DNA from: a virus
Lineage: Duplodnaviria; Heunggongvirae; Uroviricota; Caudoviricetes
Direction: 5' to 3' (one strand)
DNA: 7,971 nt
Virus record (IMG/VR): IMGVR_UViG_2600255005_000004
Location: 1-7,971 of that record
The translations under genes and the position numbers were made by a program. Below, piece by piece: positions 1 through 7,971 of the stretch. Below the pieces are notes generated by a model that saw only the letters and a program-made list of their open reading frames with translations, did not search any database and had not been told where the DNA came from. Numbering within the stretch: the stretch's first letter is position 1; the number at the start of each line of letters is the position of its first letter.

Positions 1-222
1 TTAACACTTCTGATAAATAATCCATTCAACACTCCCACAACAAAAAGCCACAGCAATCAAAAAATGAGCACGCAGAATCAAAATGCTCTCTAATCGTAAC
101 GCATTTTGAGATTTTTGATACGTTTTTTTGGGATTATGTAACGCCAAATGGTCATTTTGTGTCAGAAAAATAAATCTTAGTACCGAGAATATGTAGCTTC
201 CATCCTTCATCGTTCTATTCAT
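1..222 (-). CDS. hypothetical small protein (73 aa), possibly membrane-associated; coding status uncertain
   Basis: ORF whose ATG (220-222) overlaps the TGA (219-221) of the upstream gene in an ATGA arrangement suggesting translational coupling. Hydrophobic C-terminal stretch. Region is AT-rich, the peptide is not obviously protein-like, and the stop sits exactly at the window edge. Confidence 0.3.
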   Translation of the reverse strand: MNRTMKDGSYIFSVLRFIFLTQNDHLALHNPKKTYQKSQNALRLESILILRAHFLIAVAFCCGSVEWIIYQKC

Positions 223-650
223 CCCTGATCTCCAAGCCTCTCTCGAAAACCATTCTGATAAAACGCCAGCACACGCTGCATAACTTCACTCTTCCGGCAC
301 TCGCGACAGATTATGTTCAGACGCCTGTCGTAACGGCGTATTTCTCCGTCTGGTAATGACCAGATAAGGTCAGGATCAACCACAACCGGTTTCTTCACCT
401 TTGTCCTTGATAGTTTTTTGCGGGCGTTTTGCCAGTCTTTACGCGCCTGCTCAGACGGGAATAATCCGTAGCCTGAATTGTAAACATCACCACTGGCGAC
501 TAGTTCTCTGGCGAGAGTGCTTATGTAATACCTTGATGCACCGGTTTTAGCCTCCAGAGCCCGTAACGTCTCGCGACCGCTCAGAGGTACAAGTTCAACA
601 ACCTGTCCTTTAATTTTTTCTCGCTCTTCTGGTGTAAATACTTTTGCCAT
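219..650 (-). CDS. hypothetical prophage protein (143 aa) with a possible helix-turn-helix segment
   Basis: ATG at 650 preceded by a strong RBS (GGAGG, 5-nt spacer) 16 bp after the stop of the upstream gene. The track start at 665 is a TTG and less likely. Protein-like composition; same strand and operon as the replication genes. No family recognised. Confidence 0.6.
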   Translation of the reverse strand: MAKVFTPEEREKIKGQVVELVPLSGRETLRALEAKTGASRYYISTLARELVASGDVYNSGYGLFPSEQARKDWQNARKKLSRTKVKKPVVVDPDLIWSLPDGEIRRYDRRLNIICRECRKSEVMQRVLAFYQNGFRERLGDQG

Positions 651-665
651 AGGTGCCTCCGGCAA

Positions 666-1427
666 TCACTTTTCCGATGCAACATGGCGGGAAGAATCAG
701 TAATCTGTCGTACAATATCCCTGTGCTTGTTCAACTCACGCAGCGCGGCGCAGACACGCTCCCACTTCTGGAGATGATTTTTCGCCCGACGCAGTTCGCG
801 GTTTGCCATATGCAGTGATGGTAAAACCAGGTCATCCGCTCGCGTTTCAGTAAACGATGGCAGCGACTGCACAATGTCCGCCACAGTTTCTGTTTTAATA
901 TCTTCCTGTGTTGCAGCCTCCTGTACTGGTAACGCAACACCTGCGGTCTGAGGAAAGGCCTTACCATCAGTTTCCGCTACCGATGCTGCTTTCGGCTCTG
1001 CTGGTAAATTATCGCCCGGTATGCAGTAACGAAATTTACCGCCCTGATTTACGCGAATCAGACGACCTTTGCTGATTGCCATTGCCAGCGTTGAAGCCAC
1101 TTTGCGTGATGTGGTACCAAACAATGTAGCCAGCTCATCAGCCGTTTGTGGTCCTCGTTGTTCAATCGTCGCGGTTAAATCGCACTCTGAGATTTTCGCT
1201 ACTGTTGCTGTGGTGATTTCTTCCGGCAGTTCTGCCTGCGCTGGCTGTTCCTGCTGAATATTGTTATCAGCCACACGCCAGGTGTACGCGCTTTTATCAA
1301 CAAAACCAGCCTTTTTCAGTTCCCATAGTTCGTTCAGCACTTCTTCACGACTGATATCAAGTCGCGCAGCAAGTTCTATGGATGTGGCTTTTCCCATTGC
1401 TTTCAGTGCGTCAAAAACAGTCTCCAT
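666..1427 (-). CDS. hypothetical prophage protein (253 aa) with two winged-helix-like DNA-binding segments and an acidic linker
   Basis: Start chosen at ATG 1427 (METVFDALK...) with GGAG RBS 9 nt upstream. An alternative ATG at 1478 would overlap the DnaC-like gene by 29 nt. Two HTH-like segments ([30 protein letters not shown] and [35 protein letters not shown]) separated by an E/Q/A/T-rich linker. Family not recognised. Confidence 0.6.
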
Positions 1428-1449
1428 TAAATTTTTCTCCCGGTAAAAA

Positions 1450-2196
1450 TTACTTCGCAATTCCTGGCTGGACGACATTCGGACGCCAGCTCTCCCAGTT
1501 AAAATTCACCCATCGCCCGCCGTTCATGGTCATGCGATCCATAATCCGCTCGCCGAGCAATGTTTTCATGGCCTCATAGTTCAGGTTTGTCAGCATCCCC
1601 ACGCTGCGCATCGACGCTGTCCGGCGATCAACAATCTGGTGCAGTACCACCTGCTCGTTTTTCGTCTCGCGCTGAATGCCAATTTCATCAAGAACCAGCA
1701 GATCCACTTCGCATAGTTCCCGCAAAAATTTTTCGCCTGACTGCCCATCGTCATAGCTGGCGTGCAGGGCACTCATAACATCAGCCACGGTAACCACAAT
1801 CACTGTCTGACCGTCTTTCAGCAGGCGATTCCCGATAGCTGCCGCTAAGTGGTTCTTCCCGGTACCAGGTTTTCCGCTGAACGCAAAATTTGTACACCCG
1901 GTCATCAGTTCATCAGCGATGGATTTCGCCTGACTCAACGCGTATCGCTGCCCTTCGTTCTGCACCTGGTAATTCGAAAACGAGCATTTGCGGTGCAATG
2001 GCTGGATGCCAGAGCGATTCAGAATTTTTTCCACCCGCAACTGACGATTCTGACGGTTGATCTCCTCACAACGTTTCTGGCCTTCGGAAAGTTGCCACTC
2101 GCGCCACTCCGCTACCGTTTTGAATGGGGCGGTTACATGTGGCGGGGCCAGTCTGCGGATACGTTCAAGAATGCCGCCTGCCGCAATATTTTTCAT
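1450..2196 (-). CDS. DnaC/IstB-like AAA+ replicative helicase loader (YdaV-like prophage replication protein)
   Basis: Walker [16 protein letters not shown] and Walker B LLVLDEIG. 248 aa, close to the 246-aa YdaV of K-12 Rac as recalled. GGGGG RBS upstream of ATG 2196, 7 nt after the stop of the initiator gene. Confidence 0.9.
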
Positions 2197-2202
2197 GGTC
2201 AG

Positions 2203-2991
2203 TTACCCCCTGAAGCCTGGCGGGATCGCACTATCCGGTAACGAGACGGTGTTAACCTGTCGGAGTAACGTCTCAGGTCGAACACCTTTTGGCGCGAACA
2301 AGCCCTGGTATTCATTGGCGATGCTGTGTCGAATCACCTGCTCAGGTGAAAAACCCTGCTGGCGGAATTTTTCCAGCTCCCGTATCGCCCCGTTAGCGCC
2401 CTGCTCCGTTCGAATCGGTTTTCGCAATGCCTGCCTGAACTGAACCCACTCATGCCAGAGTGTTTCCGGCAACCAGTCAGGCAGCTCGATAGCCTCCGGT
2501 TCGAATTTTTTAGACGCTCGTTTTTGGCGAGGGGGATTTAGGGGGAGATAAGTATTTATATCTTCCTCTTTCTCTTCCTCTGGTAACGCTTTTTGATCCG
2601 TTTTTGTAACGCTGGCAGCGTTACCTTTTCGTTTCAGTTCTCGTATTTTTGTTACTCTCTCGTTTGTAACCGCCCGTTTTTTAGAGCTTTTCCCGTTATG
2701 GCGCTCAAAGTTAGGAAGCGACAACACACCATTAGTTTCGACCAGCCATCCAACCTGAATTAACGCATCAGCAAAACCAGCCATAAAAGTGATGCGATCT
2801 ATTGCACTTTTTGTAACGCCGCGAGCGTTACACTCTGCGTTACCGTCTATCATTTGTTGATCCGCCCATGCCCAGAAGCGAATGACTTTCCCTAATGCGG
2901 CATCTGGATCAATATTCAGAATCTCAGCAAGCCTGAATATTTCCGGCTTATCCGGCGTAATAACTTCGAGCTTTATCCAGTTTGAAGCCAT
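2203..2991 (-). CDS. prophage replication initiator, YdaU/lambda-O-like (262 aa)
   Basis: Sits immediately upstream of the DnaC-like loader, the O-then-P arrangement of lambdoid phages. AGGTGA RBS 6 nt before ATG 2991. K/E-rich central linker whose DNA carries GTAACGC palindromes and T tracts. Assignment is by synteny and architecture, not verified by search. Confidence 0.75.
   Translation of the reverse strand: MASNWIKLEVITPDKPEIFRLAEILNIDPDAALGKVIRFWAWADQQMIDGNAECNARGVTKSAIDRITFMAGFADALIQVGWLVETNGVLSLPNFERHNGKSSKKRAVTNERVTKIRELKRKGNAASVTKTDQKALPEEEKEEDINTYLPLNPPRQKRASKKFEPEAIELPDWLPETLWHEWVQFRQALRKPIRTEQGANGAIRELEKFRQQGFSPEQVIRHSIANEYQGLFAPKGVRPETLLRQVNTVSLPDSAIPPGFRG
2606..2624. repeat. 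19-bp palindrome GTAACGCTggcAGCGTTAC (copy 1, inside initiator coding sequence)
   Basis: Perfect 8-bp inverted arms read directly. Sits in a cluster of GTAAC/GTTAC half-sites with T tracts between 2583 and 2670. Confidence 0.7.
2813..2831. repeat. 19-bp palindrome GTAACGCcgcgaGCGTTAC (copy 2, inside initiator coding sequence)
   Basis: 7-bp perfect arms with flanking T...A; an extra GCGTTAC half-site lies at 2837-2843. Confidence 0.7.
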
Positions 2992-3004
2992 TTGTTTTCA
3001 CCTT

Positions 3005-3023
3005 GTAACGCTCGCAGCGTTAC
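3005..3023. repeat. 19-bp palindrome GTAACGCTcgcAGCGTTAC (copy 3, in the ydaT-ydaU intergenic region, 14 bp upstream of the initiator ATG)
   Basis: Perfect 8-bp arms, extendable to 9 bp (TGTAACGCT / AGCGTTACA). Same motif as copies 1 and 2 at roughly 200-bp spacing. Confidence 0.7.
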
Positions 3024-3033
3024 ATTTAACTGA

Positions 3034-3055
3034 TACCGAACAAAACAGTTCGGTA
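3034..3055. repeat. perfect palindrome TACCGAAC-aaaaca-GTTCGGTA between the ydaT-like stop and the initiator start
   Basis: 8-bp perfect inverted arms with 6-nt spacer read directly. No flanking U-tract in either orientation, so more likely a protein-binding site or attenuating hairpin than a canonical terminator. Confidence 0.5.
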
Positions 3056-3068
3056 CGATTAATTTCAA

Positions 3069-3491
3069 TCAATGCACTACGACAGAATCGCTAGGAGAAC
3101 CGCCGCCGCTGAAATGTGCTTTACGGTAAACGGCCTGGACTGCATCATCATGCGCATCAATTGCCGTACTCAGTGCATCCTGTGCCGCCAGTAATGCACG
3201 GCGTTCCAGGGTATCGAAGATGCAGAGTCGGTGACGCAGCTCGCGAGGAAGAATTGCCAGAACCGCAGGGATCAGTTTCTGAATTTTTTCCCTTTGCGCA
3301 TTCGTTTCACCTTTCAACCAACGATGATAGATATTCTGCTGATTGTTCCAGTCCTTGCCTGGTACCAGGGGCAATTCGCCGCCCCCCTGGCGCAGATATT
3401 CTTCAGTAATTGCGTTAGCGACCCACGCCTGCCCTTTTTCGGCTGCCAGGGCTAACAACACTGATTCGATGTGCTCATGCTTGATTTTCAT
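3069..3491 (-). CDS. YdaT-like protein (CII-analogous regulator / toxic-when-derepressed family), 140 aa
   Basis: 140 aa, the same length as K-12 YdaT, beginning MKIKHEHI. Directly downstream of the Cro-like gene with ATGA start/stop overlap (3488-3491). Position is equivalent to cII/ydaT in Rac and CP-933P-type immunity regions. Confidence 0.65.
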   Translation of the reverse strand: MKIKHEHIESVLLALAAEKGQAWVANAITEEYLRQGGGELPLVPGKDWNNQQNIYHRWLKGETNAQREKIQKLIPAVLAILPRELRHRLCIFDTLERRALLAAQDALSTAIDAHDDAVQAVYRKAHFSGGGSPSDSVVVH

Positions 3492-3742
3492 GAATCAACT
3501 CCCATCAGCTTTTTCGTAGTAGTTTTATTTCTGCCAATAGTTAAAATTGCATCGGCAGAAAATAATCCGTTTGATGCATGAGCGATTTTTTCAGCGTAAT
3601 TTGTTTCGCCGGTATATTCTGTGCGAGGCAATTTTCCGTTATCCATCCATTTGTAGATTGCTCTTTGGCTGACACCACAAACGTCGGCCACAACAGAAAC
3701 GCGAACAGTTTTGATTACATCTTCAAGTGTTTTCTGGTTCAT
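3488..3742 (-). CDS. Cro/YdaS-like helix-turn-helix regulator (84 aa)
   Basis: HTH segment VADVCGVSQRAIYKWMDNGKLP. Start placed at ATG 3742 (MNQKTLEDV...) with GAGGG RBS. The upstream ATG at 3814 adds a Cys-rich junk-like N-terminus and lies inside the operator region. Divergent from the repressor gene. Confidence 0.75.
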   Translation of the reverse strand: MNQKTLEDVIKTVRVSVVADVCGVSQRAIYKWMDNGKLPRTEYTGETNYAEKIAHASNGLFSADAILTIGRNKTTTKKLMGVDS

Positions 3743-3757
3743 ATCACCCTCACAATG

Positions 3758-3829
3758 TGAACTTTGAGTACATGCTATAACAGAACTGACAGTACATTCA
3801 AGAGCGAATATCATTGAACTTATGGTTCA
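3758..3829. promoter_or_regulatory. OR-like divergent promoter/operator region: three 15-bp operator-like sites plus candidate back-to-back promoters
   Basis: Sites TGAACTttgAGTACA (3758-3772), AGAACTgacAGTACA (3782-3796) and TGAACTtatGGTTCA (3815-3829, overlapping the repressor ATG). Candidate repressor promoter: -35 CTGACA 3786-3791, 17-bp spacer, -10 TATCAT 3809-3814, start near the ATG. Candidate cro-side promoter on - strand: -35 TTGAAT (3796-3801), 16-bp spacer, -10 TATAGC (3774-3779). Confidence 0.55.
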
Positions 3830-4241
3830 TGAAGATAAAGCGCGTAAAGAGTTCGCCAGTAGGCTTGCGCTAGCCTGTGAAAACGCTGGTTATGAACAAC
3901 ATGGAAGGCAGGCAGAAATTGCCCGTCGAATGAAATTAACACCAAAAGCGGTTAGCAAATGGTTTAATGGTGAAACAATTCCTCGCCGAGAGAAATTAAG
4001 GGAATTAGCAACACTCATTGGAACAACACCAACCTATCTTTTGGGAGAGGATACAGAAGAAAGTGGACAGATACGTTTCTATCAGGAGTTAAATCCAAGA
4101 CAAAAAATCATCATTGACCTTCTGGACGAGCTCCCTGACAGTGAGACAGATGAACTTTTAAAAACTCTTGAGGAGAAAAAACAGAAGTACAATGCAATTT
4201 ACGAAGAGTTAGCACGAAAGAAAAAACAAAAAGCCTCTTAA
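3822..4241 (+). CDS. XRE-family prophage repressor (RacR-like / CI-like), 139 aa, no S24 peptidase domain
   Basis: N-terminal Cro/CI-type HTH (RQAEIARRMKLTPKAVSKWFNGETIP) and K/E-rich helical C-terminus. Divergent from the Cro-like gene across a 79-bp region holding repeated operator motifs. No SD sequence before the ATG, so probably leaderless like lambda cI from PRM. Differs in length from K-12 RacR (158 aa as recalled), so likely a different immunity type. Confidence 0.8.
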   Translation: MVHEDKARKEFASRLALACENAGYEQHGRQAEIARRMKLTPKAVSKWFNGETIPRREKLRELATLIGTTPTYLLGEDTEESGQIRFYQELNPRQKIIIDLLDELPDSETDELLKTLEEKKQKYNAIYEELARKKKQKAS

Positions 4242-4317
4242 ACCAGCATAAATCCGGTAGCGTCCCCCTCCGGGTTTGTGCTTCACTTTATCCCGTCTCA
4301 TTTTTTTATACATAAAA

Positions 4318-4360
4318 TGTACTTAAAGTACTTTACAATGATGAACACAAAGTACATTAT
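4318..4360 (+). promoter_or_regulatory. OL/PL-like early-left promoter with two operator-like sites
   Basis: Sites TGTACTtaaAGTACT (4318-4332) and TGAACAcaaAGTACA (4342-4356) share the OR-region motif. Candidate -35 TTTACA (4332-4337), 17-bp spacer, -10 CATTAT (4355-4360), reading rightward into ydaG/ydaF. Confidence 0.5.
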
Positions 4361-4528
4361 ATACCTACCAACCCACCCCGCCCCACAGAACGCCGGGCAA
4401 TACTTCGAGTTACCAGGCAGTGGTCAGGGGTTAAGTAGCCAGCCCGAGGCGTATGAACATGACGGCGGGATTCAAATTTTGCAGTGCAGCAGTTAGTTCC
4501 GCCACCCGGCGTTAAGGGGATAGATAAG

Positions 4529-4663
4529 ATGGTGCATTACGAAGTAGTTCAGTATTTGATGGATTGTTGCGGTATCACTTACAACCAGGCTGTGCAGGCT
4601 TTACGCAGCAACGACTGGGATCTCTGGCAGGCAGAAGTCGCTATACGTAGCAACAAGATGTGA
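4529..4663 (+). CDS. ydaG: small protein YdaG-like (44 aa)
   Basis: Below the ORF-track size cutoff. AAGGGGA RBS 8 nt upstream of the ATG. Clean 44-aa protein-like sequence (MVHYEVVQYLMDCCGITYNQAVQALRSNDWDLWQAEVAIRSNKM). Size and position next to the repressor match ydaG of Rac. Confidence 0.6.
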   Translation: MVHYEVVQYLMDCCGITYNQAVQALRSNDWDLWQAEVAIRSNKM

Positions 4664-4673
4664 GATTCGCAAA

Positions 4674-4829
4674 ATGCAAAAAATCGACCTCGGCAACAAC
4701 GAATCCCTGGTGTGCGGCGTGTTCCCCAACCAGGATGGAACGTTCACTGCCATGACGTATACCAAAAGCAAAACATTTAAAACCGAAACTGGTGCGCGCC
4801 GATGGTTGGAGAAGCACACAGTAAGCTAA
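4674..4829 (+). CDS. ydaF: small protein YdaF-like (51 aa)
   Basis: Below the ORF-track cutoff. 51 aa (MQKIDLGNNESLVCGVFPNQDGTF...), 10 nt after the ydaG stop. Size and position match ydaF of Rac. Its 3' end overlaps the 3' end of convergent sieB by 4 bp. Confidence 0.6.
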   Translation: MQKIDLGNNESLVCGVFPNQDGTFTAMTYTKSKTFKTETGARRWLEKHTVS

Positions 4830-5314
4830 CGATTAAAACGTCTACTCCTGCTGTTCCAGAATAACTTCATAAAATGGGAGTATTTTTCGGTGACGAGATA
4901 ATAAGAACAGTTTGCGCTATCACTCTGATGTTGAATGATGCCCTTCCGTTCTAATTTTTTCATAACCGGGTTACGGCAAGGAGAAGTGATAATAAGATTT
5001 CCTGTTTTAAGGAAATCTTTAAATACAGCGATTTCTTTCTCAGATAAACGAAGCAATACTCGTTGCTCTGGTAGTAATGAATAATGCTTTTGAATATGTG
5101 CTCGCAATCTTGAGAAGGAAATGGCGACCACGAAAGAAAAGGCAAAAACGATAATCTGAAAGAGCCAAGGTATTTCAGTATAAGCATTGAATGCGACAGT
5201 AAACTCTTTCGGTATCAGCCAGAGAGTGAGACCAAAAATGATAATCGTATACATAAGTCTTTCGAGTGGCTCGTTAGCAAAAAGTTTCAACAATGGAGTA
5301 AATACATCCAACAT
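4826..5314 (-). CDS. sieB: superinfection exclusion protein B (SieB), 162 aa membrane protein
   Basis: Start at internal ATG 5314 (MLDVFTPLLKLF...) gives 162 aa, the length recalled for SieB. Two hydrophobic TM-like segments. Antisense to the early-left operon between ydaF and kilR, as in Rac. Confidence 0.75.
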   Translation of the reverse strand: MLDVFTPLLKLFANEPLERLMYTIIIFGLTLWLIPKEFTVAFNAYTEIPWLFQIIVFAFSFVVAISFSRLRAHIQKHYSLLPEQRVLLRLSEKEIAVFKDFLKTGNLIITSPCRNPVMKKLERKGIIQHQSDSANCSYYLVTEKYSHFMKLFWNSRSRRFNR

Positions 5315-5532
5315 ATCAATAACTCTCAACTGTAAGGGTATTGAAATGTTAACACAAGCTCTCGCTGTAGGGGTATAGCCGAGACCACCGAAGCCCGGAG
5401 GTGGTGAAATAAAACCGGGCACAACACGAAGGCGCATTTCCGATATCCATAAAGAGTCGGTCTTGTCTGTTAAATTTAAATGGTGGGAGTGCGCCTCCGG
5501 TTGTAAATAACGACATTGCTGTGTGTAGTCCT

Positions 5533-5580
5533 GGCGGCATCAGTTTTTTTCTTGAAGTTCGGCTGATGTCCGCCCTTTTT
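5533..5580 (+). terminator. candidate intrinsic terminator or attenuator in the sieB-kilR intergenic region
   Basis: GGCGGCATCAG (5533-5543) pairs with CTGATGTCCGCC (5563-5574), 11 bp with one bulge, followed by CTTTTT. The 19-nt loop is long for a classical terminator. Orientation fits the + strand early-left transcript upstream of kilR. Confidence 0.4.
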
Positions 5581-5755
5581 AAAGTGAATTTTGTGATGCG
5601 GTGAATGCGGCTAAGCGCACGTGGCACAGTTAAAAGTCATGTTAGTCCTTATTGGTTTGGGTGGGAAAGCCGACTGTAATTGTTAACTGGTTGCAGTCAC
5701 CTGGAGGCACCAGGCACCGCATCAACAAAGTTCATTTGTAAAAATGGAGATAATT

Positions 5756-5977
5756 ATGATTGCACATCACTTCGGAACTGATGAAATACCACGTCAGTGT
5801 GTGACTCCTGGTGACTATGTTCTTCATGAAGGCCGGACATATATTGCCTCGGCAAACAATATTAAAAAGCGAAAACTTTATATTCGTAACCTGACCACAA
5901 AAACATGCATTACTGACTGCATGATTAAAGTCTTCCTCGGTCGTAATGGTTTACCTGTAAAGGCGGAGTCATGGTGA
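5756..5977 (+). CDS. kilR: KilR-like cell-division inhibitor (73 aa)
   Basis: Start at ATG 5756 ([10 protein letters not shown]...) with GGAG RBS 7 nt upstream gives 73 aa, the recalled KilR length. Divergent from sieB and followed by ydaE and racC as in Rac. Confidence 0.7.
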
Positions 5978-6147
5978 TGACTAAGAAAATAAAATGTGCT
6001 TACCACCTTTGCAATAAAGAAATTGAAGAAAGCAAAAGTATTAAAAGACCACTTCATTTCATGCGTGGAGTTATCCAAACGACGGAAATGAAAAAATATT
6101 GTAGTGAAAGTTGTGCCGAAAAAGACCAGATGGCACACGAACTTTAA
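5977..6147 (+). CDS. ydaE: YdaE-like small zinc-ribbon protein (56 aa)
   Basis: Below the ORF-track cutoff. ATG overlaps the kilR stop (TGATG). Two Cys pairs, CAYHLC and CSESC, suggest a zinc ribbon. 56 aa matches recalled ydaE. Confidence 0.65.
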   Translation: MTKKIKCAYHLCNKEIEESKSIKRPLHFMRGVIQTTEMKKYCSESCAEKDQMAHEL

Positions 6148-6220
6148 TTAACTGACTATGCGAAACTGAATTTATGCCAGCAATGGCAGGGACTCGCTCA
6201 ACCTTAATTAAGGAGAAAAC

Positions 6221-6469
6221 ATGATTACCAGTTATGAGGCCACTGTTGTAACTACTGATGACATTGTTCACGAGGTTAATCTGGAAGGAAAGCGTATTGG
6301 CTACGTGATTAAAACAGAAAATAAAGAAACCCCATTCACTGTGGTTGATATCGACGGTCCATCAGGCAACGTTAAAACACTTCACGAAGGTGTCAAAAAA
6401 ATGTGCCTGGTGCATACCGGAAAGAATCTGCCCGCAAGAAAAAAAAAGCCGAATTTCTGGCAACTCTAA
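6221..6469 (+). CDS. racC: RacC-like protein; C-terminus altered at an A9 homopolymer (82 aa in zero frame)
   Basis: Strong RBS (AAGGAG) before ATG 6221. Position between ydaE and recE as in Rac. An A9 run (6439-6447) precedes a short PNFWQL stop tail, whereas the -1 frame continues as AEFLATLIAMKIKR to a stop at 6490-6492, giving about 90 aa. Confidence 0.7.
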   Translation: MITSYEATVVTTDDIVHEVNLEGKRIGYVIKTENKETPFTVVDIDGPSGNVKTLHEGVKKMCLVHTGKNLPARKKKPNFWQL

Positions 6470-6504
6470 TTGCAATGAAAATTAAAAGGTGAAATCTGAA
6501 AGAA

Positions 6505-6529
6505 ATAGCCTGCGTATGGCGCAGGCTAT
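6505..6529. other. perfect 10-bp stem, 5-nt loop hairpin ATAGCCTGCG-tatgg-CGCAGGCTAT between racC and recE
   Basis: Read directly. No U-tract on the + strand; the - strand flank is only weakly T-rich. Function unclear. Confidence 0.35.
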
Positions 6530-6600
6530 GAACAGTGTGTATCCGGCAAGATCATTCACTGAACAAAACGAATTTTAATCTGAGTTGAGGTTAAAAAACA

Positions 6601-7971
6601 ATGAGCACAAAACCACTCTTCCTGTTACGGAAAGCGAAAAAATCATCCGGTGAACCTGACGTCGTCCTGTGGGCAAGCGACGATTTTGAATCGACCTGTG
6701 CCACTCTGGACTACCTGATCGTTAAGTCAGGTAAAAAACTGAGCAACTATTTTAAAGCTGTTGCCACAAATTTTCCTGTCGTTAATGACCTTCCCCCTGA
6801 AGGTGAGATCGATTTTACCTGGAGTGAACGCTATCAACTCAGCAAAGACTCCATGACATGGGAACTAAAACCGGGAGCAGCGCCAGACGACGTTCACCAC
6901 CAGGATAATGCTCAAGAAACCAACGAACTGGCGGGAGGCCAGGAAGAAAACGCGCAGGCAGACGCCCACGAGGATTGCCAGGATTGCGAAGTCTCTGTAG
7001 CCACTTTGCGGTTCACACAGCGTCTTCTGCACATTTTTACGTATGCGGCCGGGGATCGGAAATACCTGCATCATGCCACCCGAGAACAACGCGAACACAT
7101 TACTGCTCTTGAGATGGATCAGGAAAACAGCTATGTCCAGAATCTGCTGTTGGCCATACGCGGCATGGCAGAACCGACAACTCTGGATAATGCCGCCCTG
7201 CTCCACCTGACTGATGCAATTAAGGCAGTTTTCTCTATCACTAAAAAACATCAGCCCTATGAATTTAAGAATTTCATTTCAGCCTGGCTGGATACCGAAC
7301 ACATTGATCGCGGTCTTCTGACAAAAGAATGGCGAAAAGGGAATCGTGTTTCACGCATCACTCGCACGGCTTCCGGTGCTAATGCTGGCGGCGGGAACCT
7401 CACAGATCGCGGCGAAGGTTTCGTCCACGATCTGACGTCACTGGCGCGCGATATAGCCACTGGCGTACTGGCCCGTTCAATGGACGTGGACATCTATAAC
7501 CTTCATCCGGCACACGCTAAACGCATTGAGGAAATTATCGCTGAAAATAAACCGCCCTTTTCTGTTTTCCGCGACAAATTCATCACCATGCCTGGCGGGC
7601 TGGATTATTCCCGCGCCATCGTGGTTGCGTCCGTGAAAGAAGCACCAATTGGGATCGAGGTCATCCCCGCTCACGTCACTGCATATCTGAACAAAGTACT
7701 GACTGAAACCGATCATGCCAACCCTGATCCGGAAATCGTGGATATTGCCTGCGGTCGCTCCTCTGCCCCGATGCCGCAGCGAGTAACAGAAGAAGGAAAA
7801 CAGGATGATGAAGAAAAACTGCAACCATCTGGAACAACGGCAGCGTTTTTATGCCTGGCGAATTGCCTGTTCAACCTCAAAGCGATTTGTCACTTTGCTG
7901 TCGATTTTCACGTAAGCCGAATGTTCTTCTTCTGCAATCAACACTTCTTTGACGCCAGCCGTTTCCAGTAA
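6601..7971 (+). pseudogene. recE: recE (exonuclease VIII) N-terminal fragment, disrupted after about codon 411; the remaining ORF is antisense read-through of a convergent gene
   Basis: N-terminus [26 protein letters not shown]... and the segment [38 protein letters not shown]... match RecE of Rac as recalled. After ...EEKLQPSG (about 7833) the translation turns Cys/Phe-rich and junk-like while the opposite strand encodes a clean protein C-terminus. The C-terminal nuclease domain of the roughly 866-aa RecE is absent. Confidence 0.7.
7849..7971 (-). CDS. 3' end (last 40 codons) of an unidentified convergent gene; the gene start lies beyond the window
   Basis: Minus-strand frame reads ...[40 protein letters not shown] with stop at 7849-7851. 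Soluble-protein-like composition, while the sense recE frame degenerates in the same interval. Confidence 0.45.

Follow-up and report, generated by a model that had tools for sequence, protein, structure and literature searches.

The gene ren of phage lambda is a classical determinant of resistance to Rex exclusion, and the gene pair IetAS is said to belong to the Gao et al. 2020 class of anti-phage systems. More recently ren has been called "likely involved in DNA replication", and the Rex proteins interact with O and Ren (Thomason et al., 10.1101/2021.04.19.439022). Overexpression of ydaW from the Rac prophage of Escherichia coli K-12 blocks the retron-Sen2 toxin RcaT (10.1101/2020.06.22.160242), and this is the sole functional datum that we found for YdaW. 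The protein family DUF977 was named a winged helix earlier by Kinch et al. in 2009 (PMC2686095). IetAS has been described as a defence system made up of a protease toxin and an ATPase antitoxin (PMC13069673), and in E. coli it has been reported to sit in prophages (10.1101/2022.08.21.504612). Here we compare these systems with the left end of a 7,971-nucleotide stretch of tailed-phage DNA (Caudoviricetes; IMG/VR record IMGVR_UViG_2600255005_000004, positions 1 to 7,971), which is called the window below and which begins with open reading frames (ORFs) for proteins of 253, 143 and 73 amino acids (aa) on its minus strand.

We conclude with high confidence that the left end of the window is the tail of a Rac-type early-right (replication) operon, next to which an inserted defence cassette begins. 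Judged by their sequences, the 253-aa protein is the intact form of K-12 YdaW and the 143-aa protein is a DUF977 / PHROG 142 Ren-like protein, so named below, and the region is ordinary, already catalogued prophage content beside a known defence system. The full explanation, in which these identities are taken together with the roles proposed below, appears to us probable.

Identity and order of the YdaW and Ren-like genes

Bases 1-1500 of the window are 100% identical in DNA sequence to the chromosome of E. coli M18 and to ten other complete genomes. The equivalent region of M18 is a Rac-type prophage between trkG and recET, in which the Prokaryotic Genome Annotation Pipeline (PGAP) lists, leftwards, a racR-like repressor, a ydaS-like gene, ydaT, a 262-aa initiator ("hypothetical protein") and ydaV (DnaC-like), and then DUF1627, DUF977, iteA, iteS, DUF1367/DUF1364/DUF1133 (the nin/Q region) and lysis genes. 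The order ydaV, DUF1627, DUF977 agrees with the view of an initial annotation, made from the letters of the window, that the leftward early operon continues past the DnaC-like loader. The three minus-strand ORFs that it listed are likewise present, and they are as tightly packed as it stated, except that 15 nucleotides (nt; 651-665) and not 16 separate the stop of the 253-aa frame from the start of the 143-aa frame; an ATGA overlap (219-222) follows. The ydaV stop (1450) is 22 nt from the 253-aa start (1427), which is the ATG used by PGAP; an upstream ATG at 1478 would yield a protein of 270 aa. The genes and their parts are as follows, with domain boundaries taken from AlphaFold2 (AF2) models and their predicted local distance difference test (pLDDT) values.

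666..1427, minus strand: YdaW-family gene, 253 aa (PF07789 DUF1627; PGAP; RefSeq WP_000450658.1)
1275..1418, minus strand: YdaW winged helix 1, residues 4-51 (AF2 H-E-H-H-E, pLDDT about 75)
1029..1187, minus strand: YdaW winged helix 2, residues 81-133 (AF2 three helices plus strands, pLDDT about 57)
672..836, minus strand: long C-terminal helix of YdaW, residues 198-252 (AF2 single helix, pLDDT about 80; invariant alignment columns)
219..650, minus strand: DUF977/Ren-like gene, 143 aa (PF06163; phrog_142; PGAP; RefSeq WP_001141107.1; "LygF" in some phage records)
459..632, minus strand: winged helix of the DUF977 protein, residues 7-64 (AF2 pLDDT 85-89)
255..323, minus strand: Ren C-terminal motif, residues 110-132, ...NIICRECRKSEVMQRVLAFYQ, whose last codon marks the recombination junction
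1..222, minus strand: 73-codon ORF in the ietAS leader; its start overlaps the DUF977 stop (ATGA) and its end the beginning of ietA; unlikely to be a functional gene

YdaW matches PF07789 (DUF1627) with 325.9 bits (gathering cut-off 28.1; E 4.4e-98), its residues 88-242 aligning with positions 1-155 of the 155 in the profile, and it matches phrog_630 over its full length (6e-131). The Ren-like protein matches PF06163 (DUF977) with 90.4 bits (cut-off 22.1; E 1.3e-25; residues 1-135 on profile positions 1-133 of 134) and phrog_142, the "Ren-like exclusion protein", at 2.2e-43 (profile positions 1-113 of 116). With these matches, and one of the 73-codon ORF to phrog_9743, the earlier statement that none of the three products could be placed in a known family proved to be wrong; scans of the three proteins with NCBIfam and PADLOC gave no match above cut-off. 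YdaW and the Ren-like protein each have an identical RefSeq entry in a named DUF family, and the question as first posed is of little importance. We count 2533 relatives of YdaW in a 90%-clustered collection and 884 relatives of the Ren-like protein. The YdaW family is narrow, because 198 cluster representatives at 50% identity, many of them fragments, reach an E value of 0.001 among 1.84 billion proteins.

Two winged-helix-like segments separated by an acidic linker had been noticed in the 253-aa protein, and a possible helix-turn-helix in the 143-aa protein. Weak Pfam matches and predicted secondary structure support these domains in both proteins. Residues 4-46 of YdaW give sub-threshold Pfam matches to HTH_20, HTH_Crp_2, TrmB, MarR and MarR_2, local Foldseek matches of winged helix 1 are to the winged helix-turn-helix (wHTH) domains of Zalpha and Csa3, and residues 84-130 match FeoC-like with 20.9 bits (cut-off 21). 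The linker (residues 52-80) is acidic and is disordered in the AF2 model, as are residues 134-197. The C-terminal helix is the most conserved part of the family, whose members carry one, two or three wHTH units before this same helix (one in short members, three in a long member), and it may mediate oligomerization. Among intact YdaW alleles the C-terminus is 64-99% conserved and the N-terminus 55-100%. Comparison with L014, L006, L015, L018 and L019 (numbers with the prefix L denote sampled loci) shows in addition that ydaW is a mosaic, its N-terminal wHTH region (55-100%) having been swapped independently of the loader (79-98%) and the initiator. A link of the YdaW C-terminus to PerC was considered and rejected (hhalign probability 0.4%); in a Citrobacter prophage a 138-aa wHTH+PerC protein occupies the YdaW position.

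Beyond its wHTH domain the AF2 model of the Ren-like protein has a disordered stretch (residues 84-113) and then a C-terminal helix. Direct alignment with lambda Ren is confined to the C-terminal motif, where NIICRECRKSEVMQRVLAFY is aligned with NLVFKECRQSAAMKRVLAVY: by BLASTP 11 of 20 residues are identical to lambda Ren residues 73-92 (E 1e-6), and hhalign aligns 23 columns with a probability of 83% and an E value of 8.7e-6 from a shallow profile (effective number of sequences, Neff, 1.26).

DUF1627 lies directly downstream of the DnaC-like ydaV in the window and in eight other sampled loci, and in all nine the order is loader, DUF1627, DUF977 and variable cargo; these loci have initiators of 262, 285, 320 and about 360 aa, which amount to at least four unrelated types. 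In L007 and L020 DUF977 directly follows a 356-aa replisome organizer, without a DnaC-like gene or DUF1627, and in phage record PP818812 DUF1627 follows a lambda-P-type loader and has no DUF977 downstream. The DUF1627 and DUF977 genes are present in 24 phage records each, including Rac-SA53, mEp460, Stx 75/02 and POCJ13, and DUF977-like DNA is present in 3444 of 5426 complete E. coli genomes (about 63%); DNA that matches the YdaW-DUF977 region is found in about 78% of complete E. coli genomes. The two genes are very common ones, and the only hints to their function, retron-toxin blocking and Rex exclusion, point to phage-host conflict.

The 254/255 junction and the IetAS cassette

What follows the two genes is a different element, whose boundary and visible parts are these:

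254..255, no strand: junction between prophage backbone and IetAS cassette (megablast starts, DNA divergence, GC change)
26..254, minus strand: cassette sequence upstream of ietA, comprising the last 12 DUF977 codons and the ietAS 5' leader or promoter region
1..25, minus strand: first 25 nt of ietA (PGAP: iteA), ATG at 25-23, from PGAP of identical M18; the gene runs off the left end

When sampled prophages that lack ietAS are compared with the window, most megablast matches begin at query positions 254-257 and the rest between 236 and 274. The aligned DNA diverges right after ...TTTTATCAG at the junction; the last bases before the divergence, ...GCGTTTTATCAG, are the codons for ...AFYQ, and the tails of DUF977 proteins past AFYQ differ among prophages. 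The AT-rich left end that had been remarked upon is real: the guanine-plus-cytosine (GC) fraction is 0.387 in 1-300 and about 0.49-0.51 further right, and when the sequence is divided at the junction GC is 36% in 1-254, 40% in ietA plus ietS and 49% in 255-1427. A PADLOC scan of L001, a locus with 100% identity to the window over their shared sequence, gave matches to both profiles of IetAS, an AAA-ATPase (IetA, 8.9e-143) and an adjacent S8 peptidase (IetS, 8.7e-302). Apart from the first 25 nt of ietA, the two matching genes lie to the left of the window. From the junction, the drop in GC and the PADLOC matches we therefore conclude that, at its AT-rich left end, the window reaches into the margin of a defence cassette acquired by horizontal transfer. 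Sequence 1-260 of the window occurs in 78 of the 5426 complete E. coli genomes, always with at least 99% identity and always between DUF977 and iteA.

These results alter one part of the initial annotation and sustain another. It had treated the three ORFs as one module, and the recombination junction parts the first two genes from a different element. It had also suggested that accessory or moron cargo is carried here, and this was correct in kind: a known defence system begins at this place, and other prophages have other cargo there. At the same slot we find a GmrSD type IV restriction enzyme with a TPR protein, a Dcm methylase with small hypothetical genes, a TumE-family toxin-antitoxin gene, an alpha/beta hydrolase, Ead/Ea22 genes and RelE/ParE. 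The Rac prophage of E. coli JX2 (L005 1046-2728) is the one with GmrSD and the TPR protein in the IetAS slot; its DUF977-YdaW segment is 98% identical to that of the window, and its DUF977 protein is shortened to 125 aa.

A Citrobacter freundii metagenome-assembled genome (MAG) has a 91%-identical IetA directly after a DUF977 gene, and window positions 26 to ~147 are conserved upstream of that IetA (L008 2455-3001, QFQQ01000127.1; the prophage that carries this 91%-identical IetAS cassette after a DUF977-type gene is otherwise different). Because the Citrobacter IetAS likewise lies directly after a DUF977-type gene in a different prophage, the comparison suggests recurrent landing at the end of the Ren-like gene. 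We take the slot that follows the Ren motif to be a swap point, at which different prophages have different defence or accessory cargo. As a precise cargo-swap point in Rac-like prophages, the 254/255 junction, right after the Ren motif, aids the delimiting of defence islands.

Within the cassette, a GGGAG Shine-Dalgarno sequence lies at 31-35 ahead of ietA. Several other candidates in and around the leader were tried and rejected. In 1-330 promoter and terminator scans of the coding strand yielded only a weak GACACA-19-CATAAT, which is not conserved in Citrobacter; as to an RNA element in the same interval, the sole Rfam match was a chance one to CRISPR-DR (E 0.6), and with a fold z-score of +0.7 the RNA structure is not unusual. 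Around the GTAACGC site at 96-102 there is an imperfect inverted repeat, and the junction shares 10 nt with the ietA start; neither feature is long enough to be told from chance. The contig L009, in which an extracytoplasmic function (ECF) sigma gene is joined to the last ~65 nt of the leader, is a single 2.5-kb metagenome contig, possibly chimeric, and was given no weight. Separately, we observed a 15-nt direct repeat, 87% identical, at 3-17 and 248-262 (core TTCTGATAAA on the plus strand), that is, at the ietA start and at the junction; it could be microhomology used in acquisition of the cassette, or it could be due to chance.

Alternative readings of the region

Three features that bear on readings other than ours are first listed:

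123..129, no strand: homopolymer, T7 on the plus strand and A7 on the coding strand; length varies between isolates
96..102 and 138..144, plus strand: GTAACGC 7-mers in the ietAS leader, both kept in palindrome-free L002, L008 and L010-13
929..935, plus strand: GTAACGC 7-mer in the YdaW gene, in the codons of the conserved peptide VALPV; same place in L002, L005, L006 and L014

The 73-codon ORF is probably an accidental open frame in the leader and not a functional gene. An alternative is that it encodes a real small protein, possibly a membrane protein, that is translationally coupled to DUF977 and ietA and is a third component or modulator of IetAS. It does have a GGAG 7 nt before its ATG, its first bases overlap the preceding stop codon (ATGA) and its last ones the start of ietA, and its C-terminus includes a hydrophobic stretch; a separate PHROG exists for it (phrog_9743, 1.5e-55), and it is intact in more than 1000 contigs. 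On the other hand, PGAP calls no gene there in M18, and its relatives number seven among 5.8 billion proteins, all from the IetAS cassette, two of the seven being frameshifted readings of the same DNA through the length of the A7 run. Its reading frame is not conserved across isolates and species. An A8 variant (P0245, 7 contigs; L010-L013) frameshifts the ORF, and ietA and ietS are intact in the inspected L010-L013; an A6 variant (P0246, 41 contigs including a 5.4-Mb genome) has the tail PKKRIKNLKMRYD before its stop, the translation of this DNA with A6. In the Citrobacter sequence ahead of ietA, homology is limited to 26 to ~147, the distal ~120 nt, and includes a 1-nt indel; the ORF that results there has 46 codons and different ends. 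The cloned IetAS moreover works as a two-gene system (10.1101/2022.08.21.504612, PMC13069673), and the only phage record that annotates the ORF calls it a "kinase (fragment)". We therefore find a genuine 73-aa gene very doubtful, and as a matter of annotation hygiene the ORF should not be carried forward as a gene. The record in question, phage vB_EcoS-683R6 (L002 6001-6222, ON470595.1), also labels ietA "cell division protein FtsH" and DUF977 "LygF", and its labels are misleading. The A7 run sits between the two GCGTTAC sites of the leader.

Those two sites belong to another reading, developed from the initial annotation, in which the 253-aa protein binds palindromes near the initiator together with the half-sites at 96 and 138, thereby tying the control of replication to the cargo downstream. 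The half-sites are exact matches at 96-102 and 138-144, as it stated, and GTAACGC is strongly enriched in the window (11 copies, 0.75 expected; 0 of 200 shuffles reach 11); the 253-aa protein has domains of a DNA-binding type. Eight of the 11 copies lie in or beside the initiator gene, and six of them form three perfect 19-bp palindromes, GTAACGC-N5-GCGTTAC, at 2606, 2813 and 3005. Together with two single arms these palindromes (2583-2624, 2813-2843 and 3005-3023) lie within the gene of the 262-aa initiator and immediately upstream of it, and that initiator may use them as origin or operator sites. The distribution of the sites across the sampled loci speaks against YdaW as their ligand. The palindromes were found in exactly three sampled loci, those with the 262-aa initiator allele (window/L001, L014 and L017), and L014 retains the arms but has different N5 spacers. 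The palindromes are absent from the K-12 and JX2 Rac prophages, whose YdaW N-terminal region is 98-100% identical to that of the window, and present in L014 (442/2), where this region is only 55% identical. The 96 and 138 half-sites travel with the ietAS leader into palindrome-free prophages, among them phage 683R6 and Citrobacter, and the 929 site, which also occurs in palindrome-free loci, encodes a conserved peptide. Because of this distribution we assign the half-sites to the cassette and the palindromes to the initiator allele, so that the link between them does not stand, and on these sequence grounds YdaW is unlikely to bind either; the reading as a whole is highly implausible.

In the explanation that we prefer, YdaW and the Ren-like protein would, after derepression, be co-transcribed with the initiator and the helicase loader and would serve as DNA-binding accessory factors of the replication module. 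YdaW would be an oligomeric multi-winged-helix protein whose variable N-terminal domains set its target specificity, and the Ren-like protein would act like lambda Ren, contacting Rex proteins and protecting the phage from Rex-type exclusion. This replication-accessory mechanism, which we infer, is put forward tentatively. Its main rival makes the two proteins a counter-defence pair instead of replication accessories, YdaW being directed against retron-type abortive-infection toxins and the Ren-like protein against Rex-type exclusion, with the fast-changing N-terminal winged helices of YdaW reflecting an arms race. That lambda ren gives resistance to Rex exclusion is general knowledge. Ren also interacts with Rex proteins (10.1101/2021.04.19.439022), and K-12 ydaW is a validated-class blocker of retron-Sen2 RcaT toxicity (10.1101/2020.06.22.160242); the PHROGs category of phrog_142 is "moron, auxiliary metabolic gene and host takeover", and the independent exchange of the YdaW N-terminus described above would fit as well. 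However, the retron evidence was obtained by overexpressing the truncated K-12 fragment in a screen, matches to PADLOC or anti-defence families were not found, and the strict position in the replication operon suits a replication role equally well. We judge this rival to be unlikely, and its extended form, in which such a pair is conserved where the lambdoid early-right operon ends and the Ren C-terminal codons are also a recombination anchor for exchange of defence cassettes (IetAS, GmrSD, toxin-antitoxin), to be quite improbable. Catalogues, for their part, list YdaW as an uncharacterized MarR-family transcription factor (PMC4797297; PMC9308461), and it could on that basis, and on the weak MarR and MarR_2 matches at residues 4-46, be a conventional regulator of prophage or host promoters. 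The MarR match has 16.9 bits (cut-off 24.6) and the MarR_2 match 14.9 (cut-off 27), which places the protein outside the family by Pfam criteria; in the AF2 model the tandem wHTH domains, long disordered regions and C-terminal helix are unlike the MarR dimer fold. We regard the MarR reading as very improbable.

Several observations weigh against the explanation that we prefer, in which a replication operon with two accessory proteins is followed by a two-gene defence cassette. Gene neighbourhoods were sampled in about a dozen loci only, a small number, and no sigma-70 consensus promoter or terminator was found on the coding strand of 1-330. The AF2 model of YdaW is poor overall (mean pLDDT 53.7; predicted template modelling score, pTM, 0.23), too poor for whole-chain comparison, and Foldseek searches of the PDB with YdaW returned generic winged-helix matches only, none of them significant (best E 0.14). 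With the DUF977 model all good Foldseek matches in the PDB are to wHTH domains (MntR/DtxR, GntR and IclR), and the best of these, E 0.017, was rated not significant. Direct similarity of the Ren-like protein to lambda Ren spans 20-23 residues only; profile searches of the PDB with both families found no match with E <0.25, and it is the functional half of the explanation that we infer. The GGAG and the ATGA overlap at the start of the 73-codon ORF, and the fact that this frame is intact in most near-identical copies, must be counted here too.

Two further regions of the window were noted in passing. Between sieB and kilR there are sub-threshold Rfam matches to DicF (5520-5575, plus strand; 39.1 bits, gathering score 48, E 6.8e-6) and to STnc100 (5577-5763, plus strand; 35.5 bits, gathering score 47), and K-12 Rac annotates the small RNA kilS at the place equivalent to this interval. 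At 6601-7971 on the plus strand there is a 456-aa frame with its stop at 7969-7971, where M18, identical in sequence, has an annotated recE of 2601 nt (exodeoxyribonuclease VIII) starting at window position 6599, with recT after it; start and frame do not match.

Comparison with described systems

K-12 YdaW (b1361) of the Rac prophage is identical to the window protein at 149 of 151 positions over residues 1-151, belongs to the same Pfam family and is likewise encoded directly after ydaV. It is, however, a truncated remnant of 186 aa whose C-terminal 35 residues are unrelated, whereas the window encodes the 253-aa form, which, unlike the K-12 remnant, keeps the conserved C-terminal helix that makes up most of what defines DUF1627.

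Lambda Ren (NP_040633, 96 aa) matches phrog_142 at 1.6e-41 over positions 11-110 of 116, and the window protein also covers nearly the full profile; the motif ...ECR.S..M.RVLA.Y is common to the two. The window protein is longer, at 143 aa, and lambda Ren lacks a Pfam DUF977 match. The lambda order O-P-ren is comparable to the window order of initiator, ydaV, ydaW and DUF977, in that both Ren genes come directly after the replication genes in the early-right operon. Closer relatives are the LygF/DUF977 proteins of Rac-SA53, mEp460 and the Stx phages 75/02 and POCJ13, inducible or plaque-forming phages in which they are 65-94% identical to the window protein and encoded at the same position. 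The tail of these proteins after AFYQ varies with the downstream cargo, and in the window the last 12 codons of the gene come from the IetAS cassette, which lies at the window edge and, unlike ydaW and the Ren-like gene, does not belong to the replication operon.

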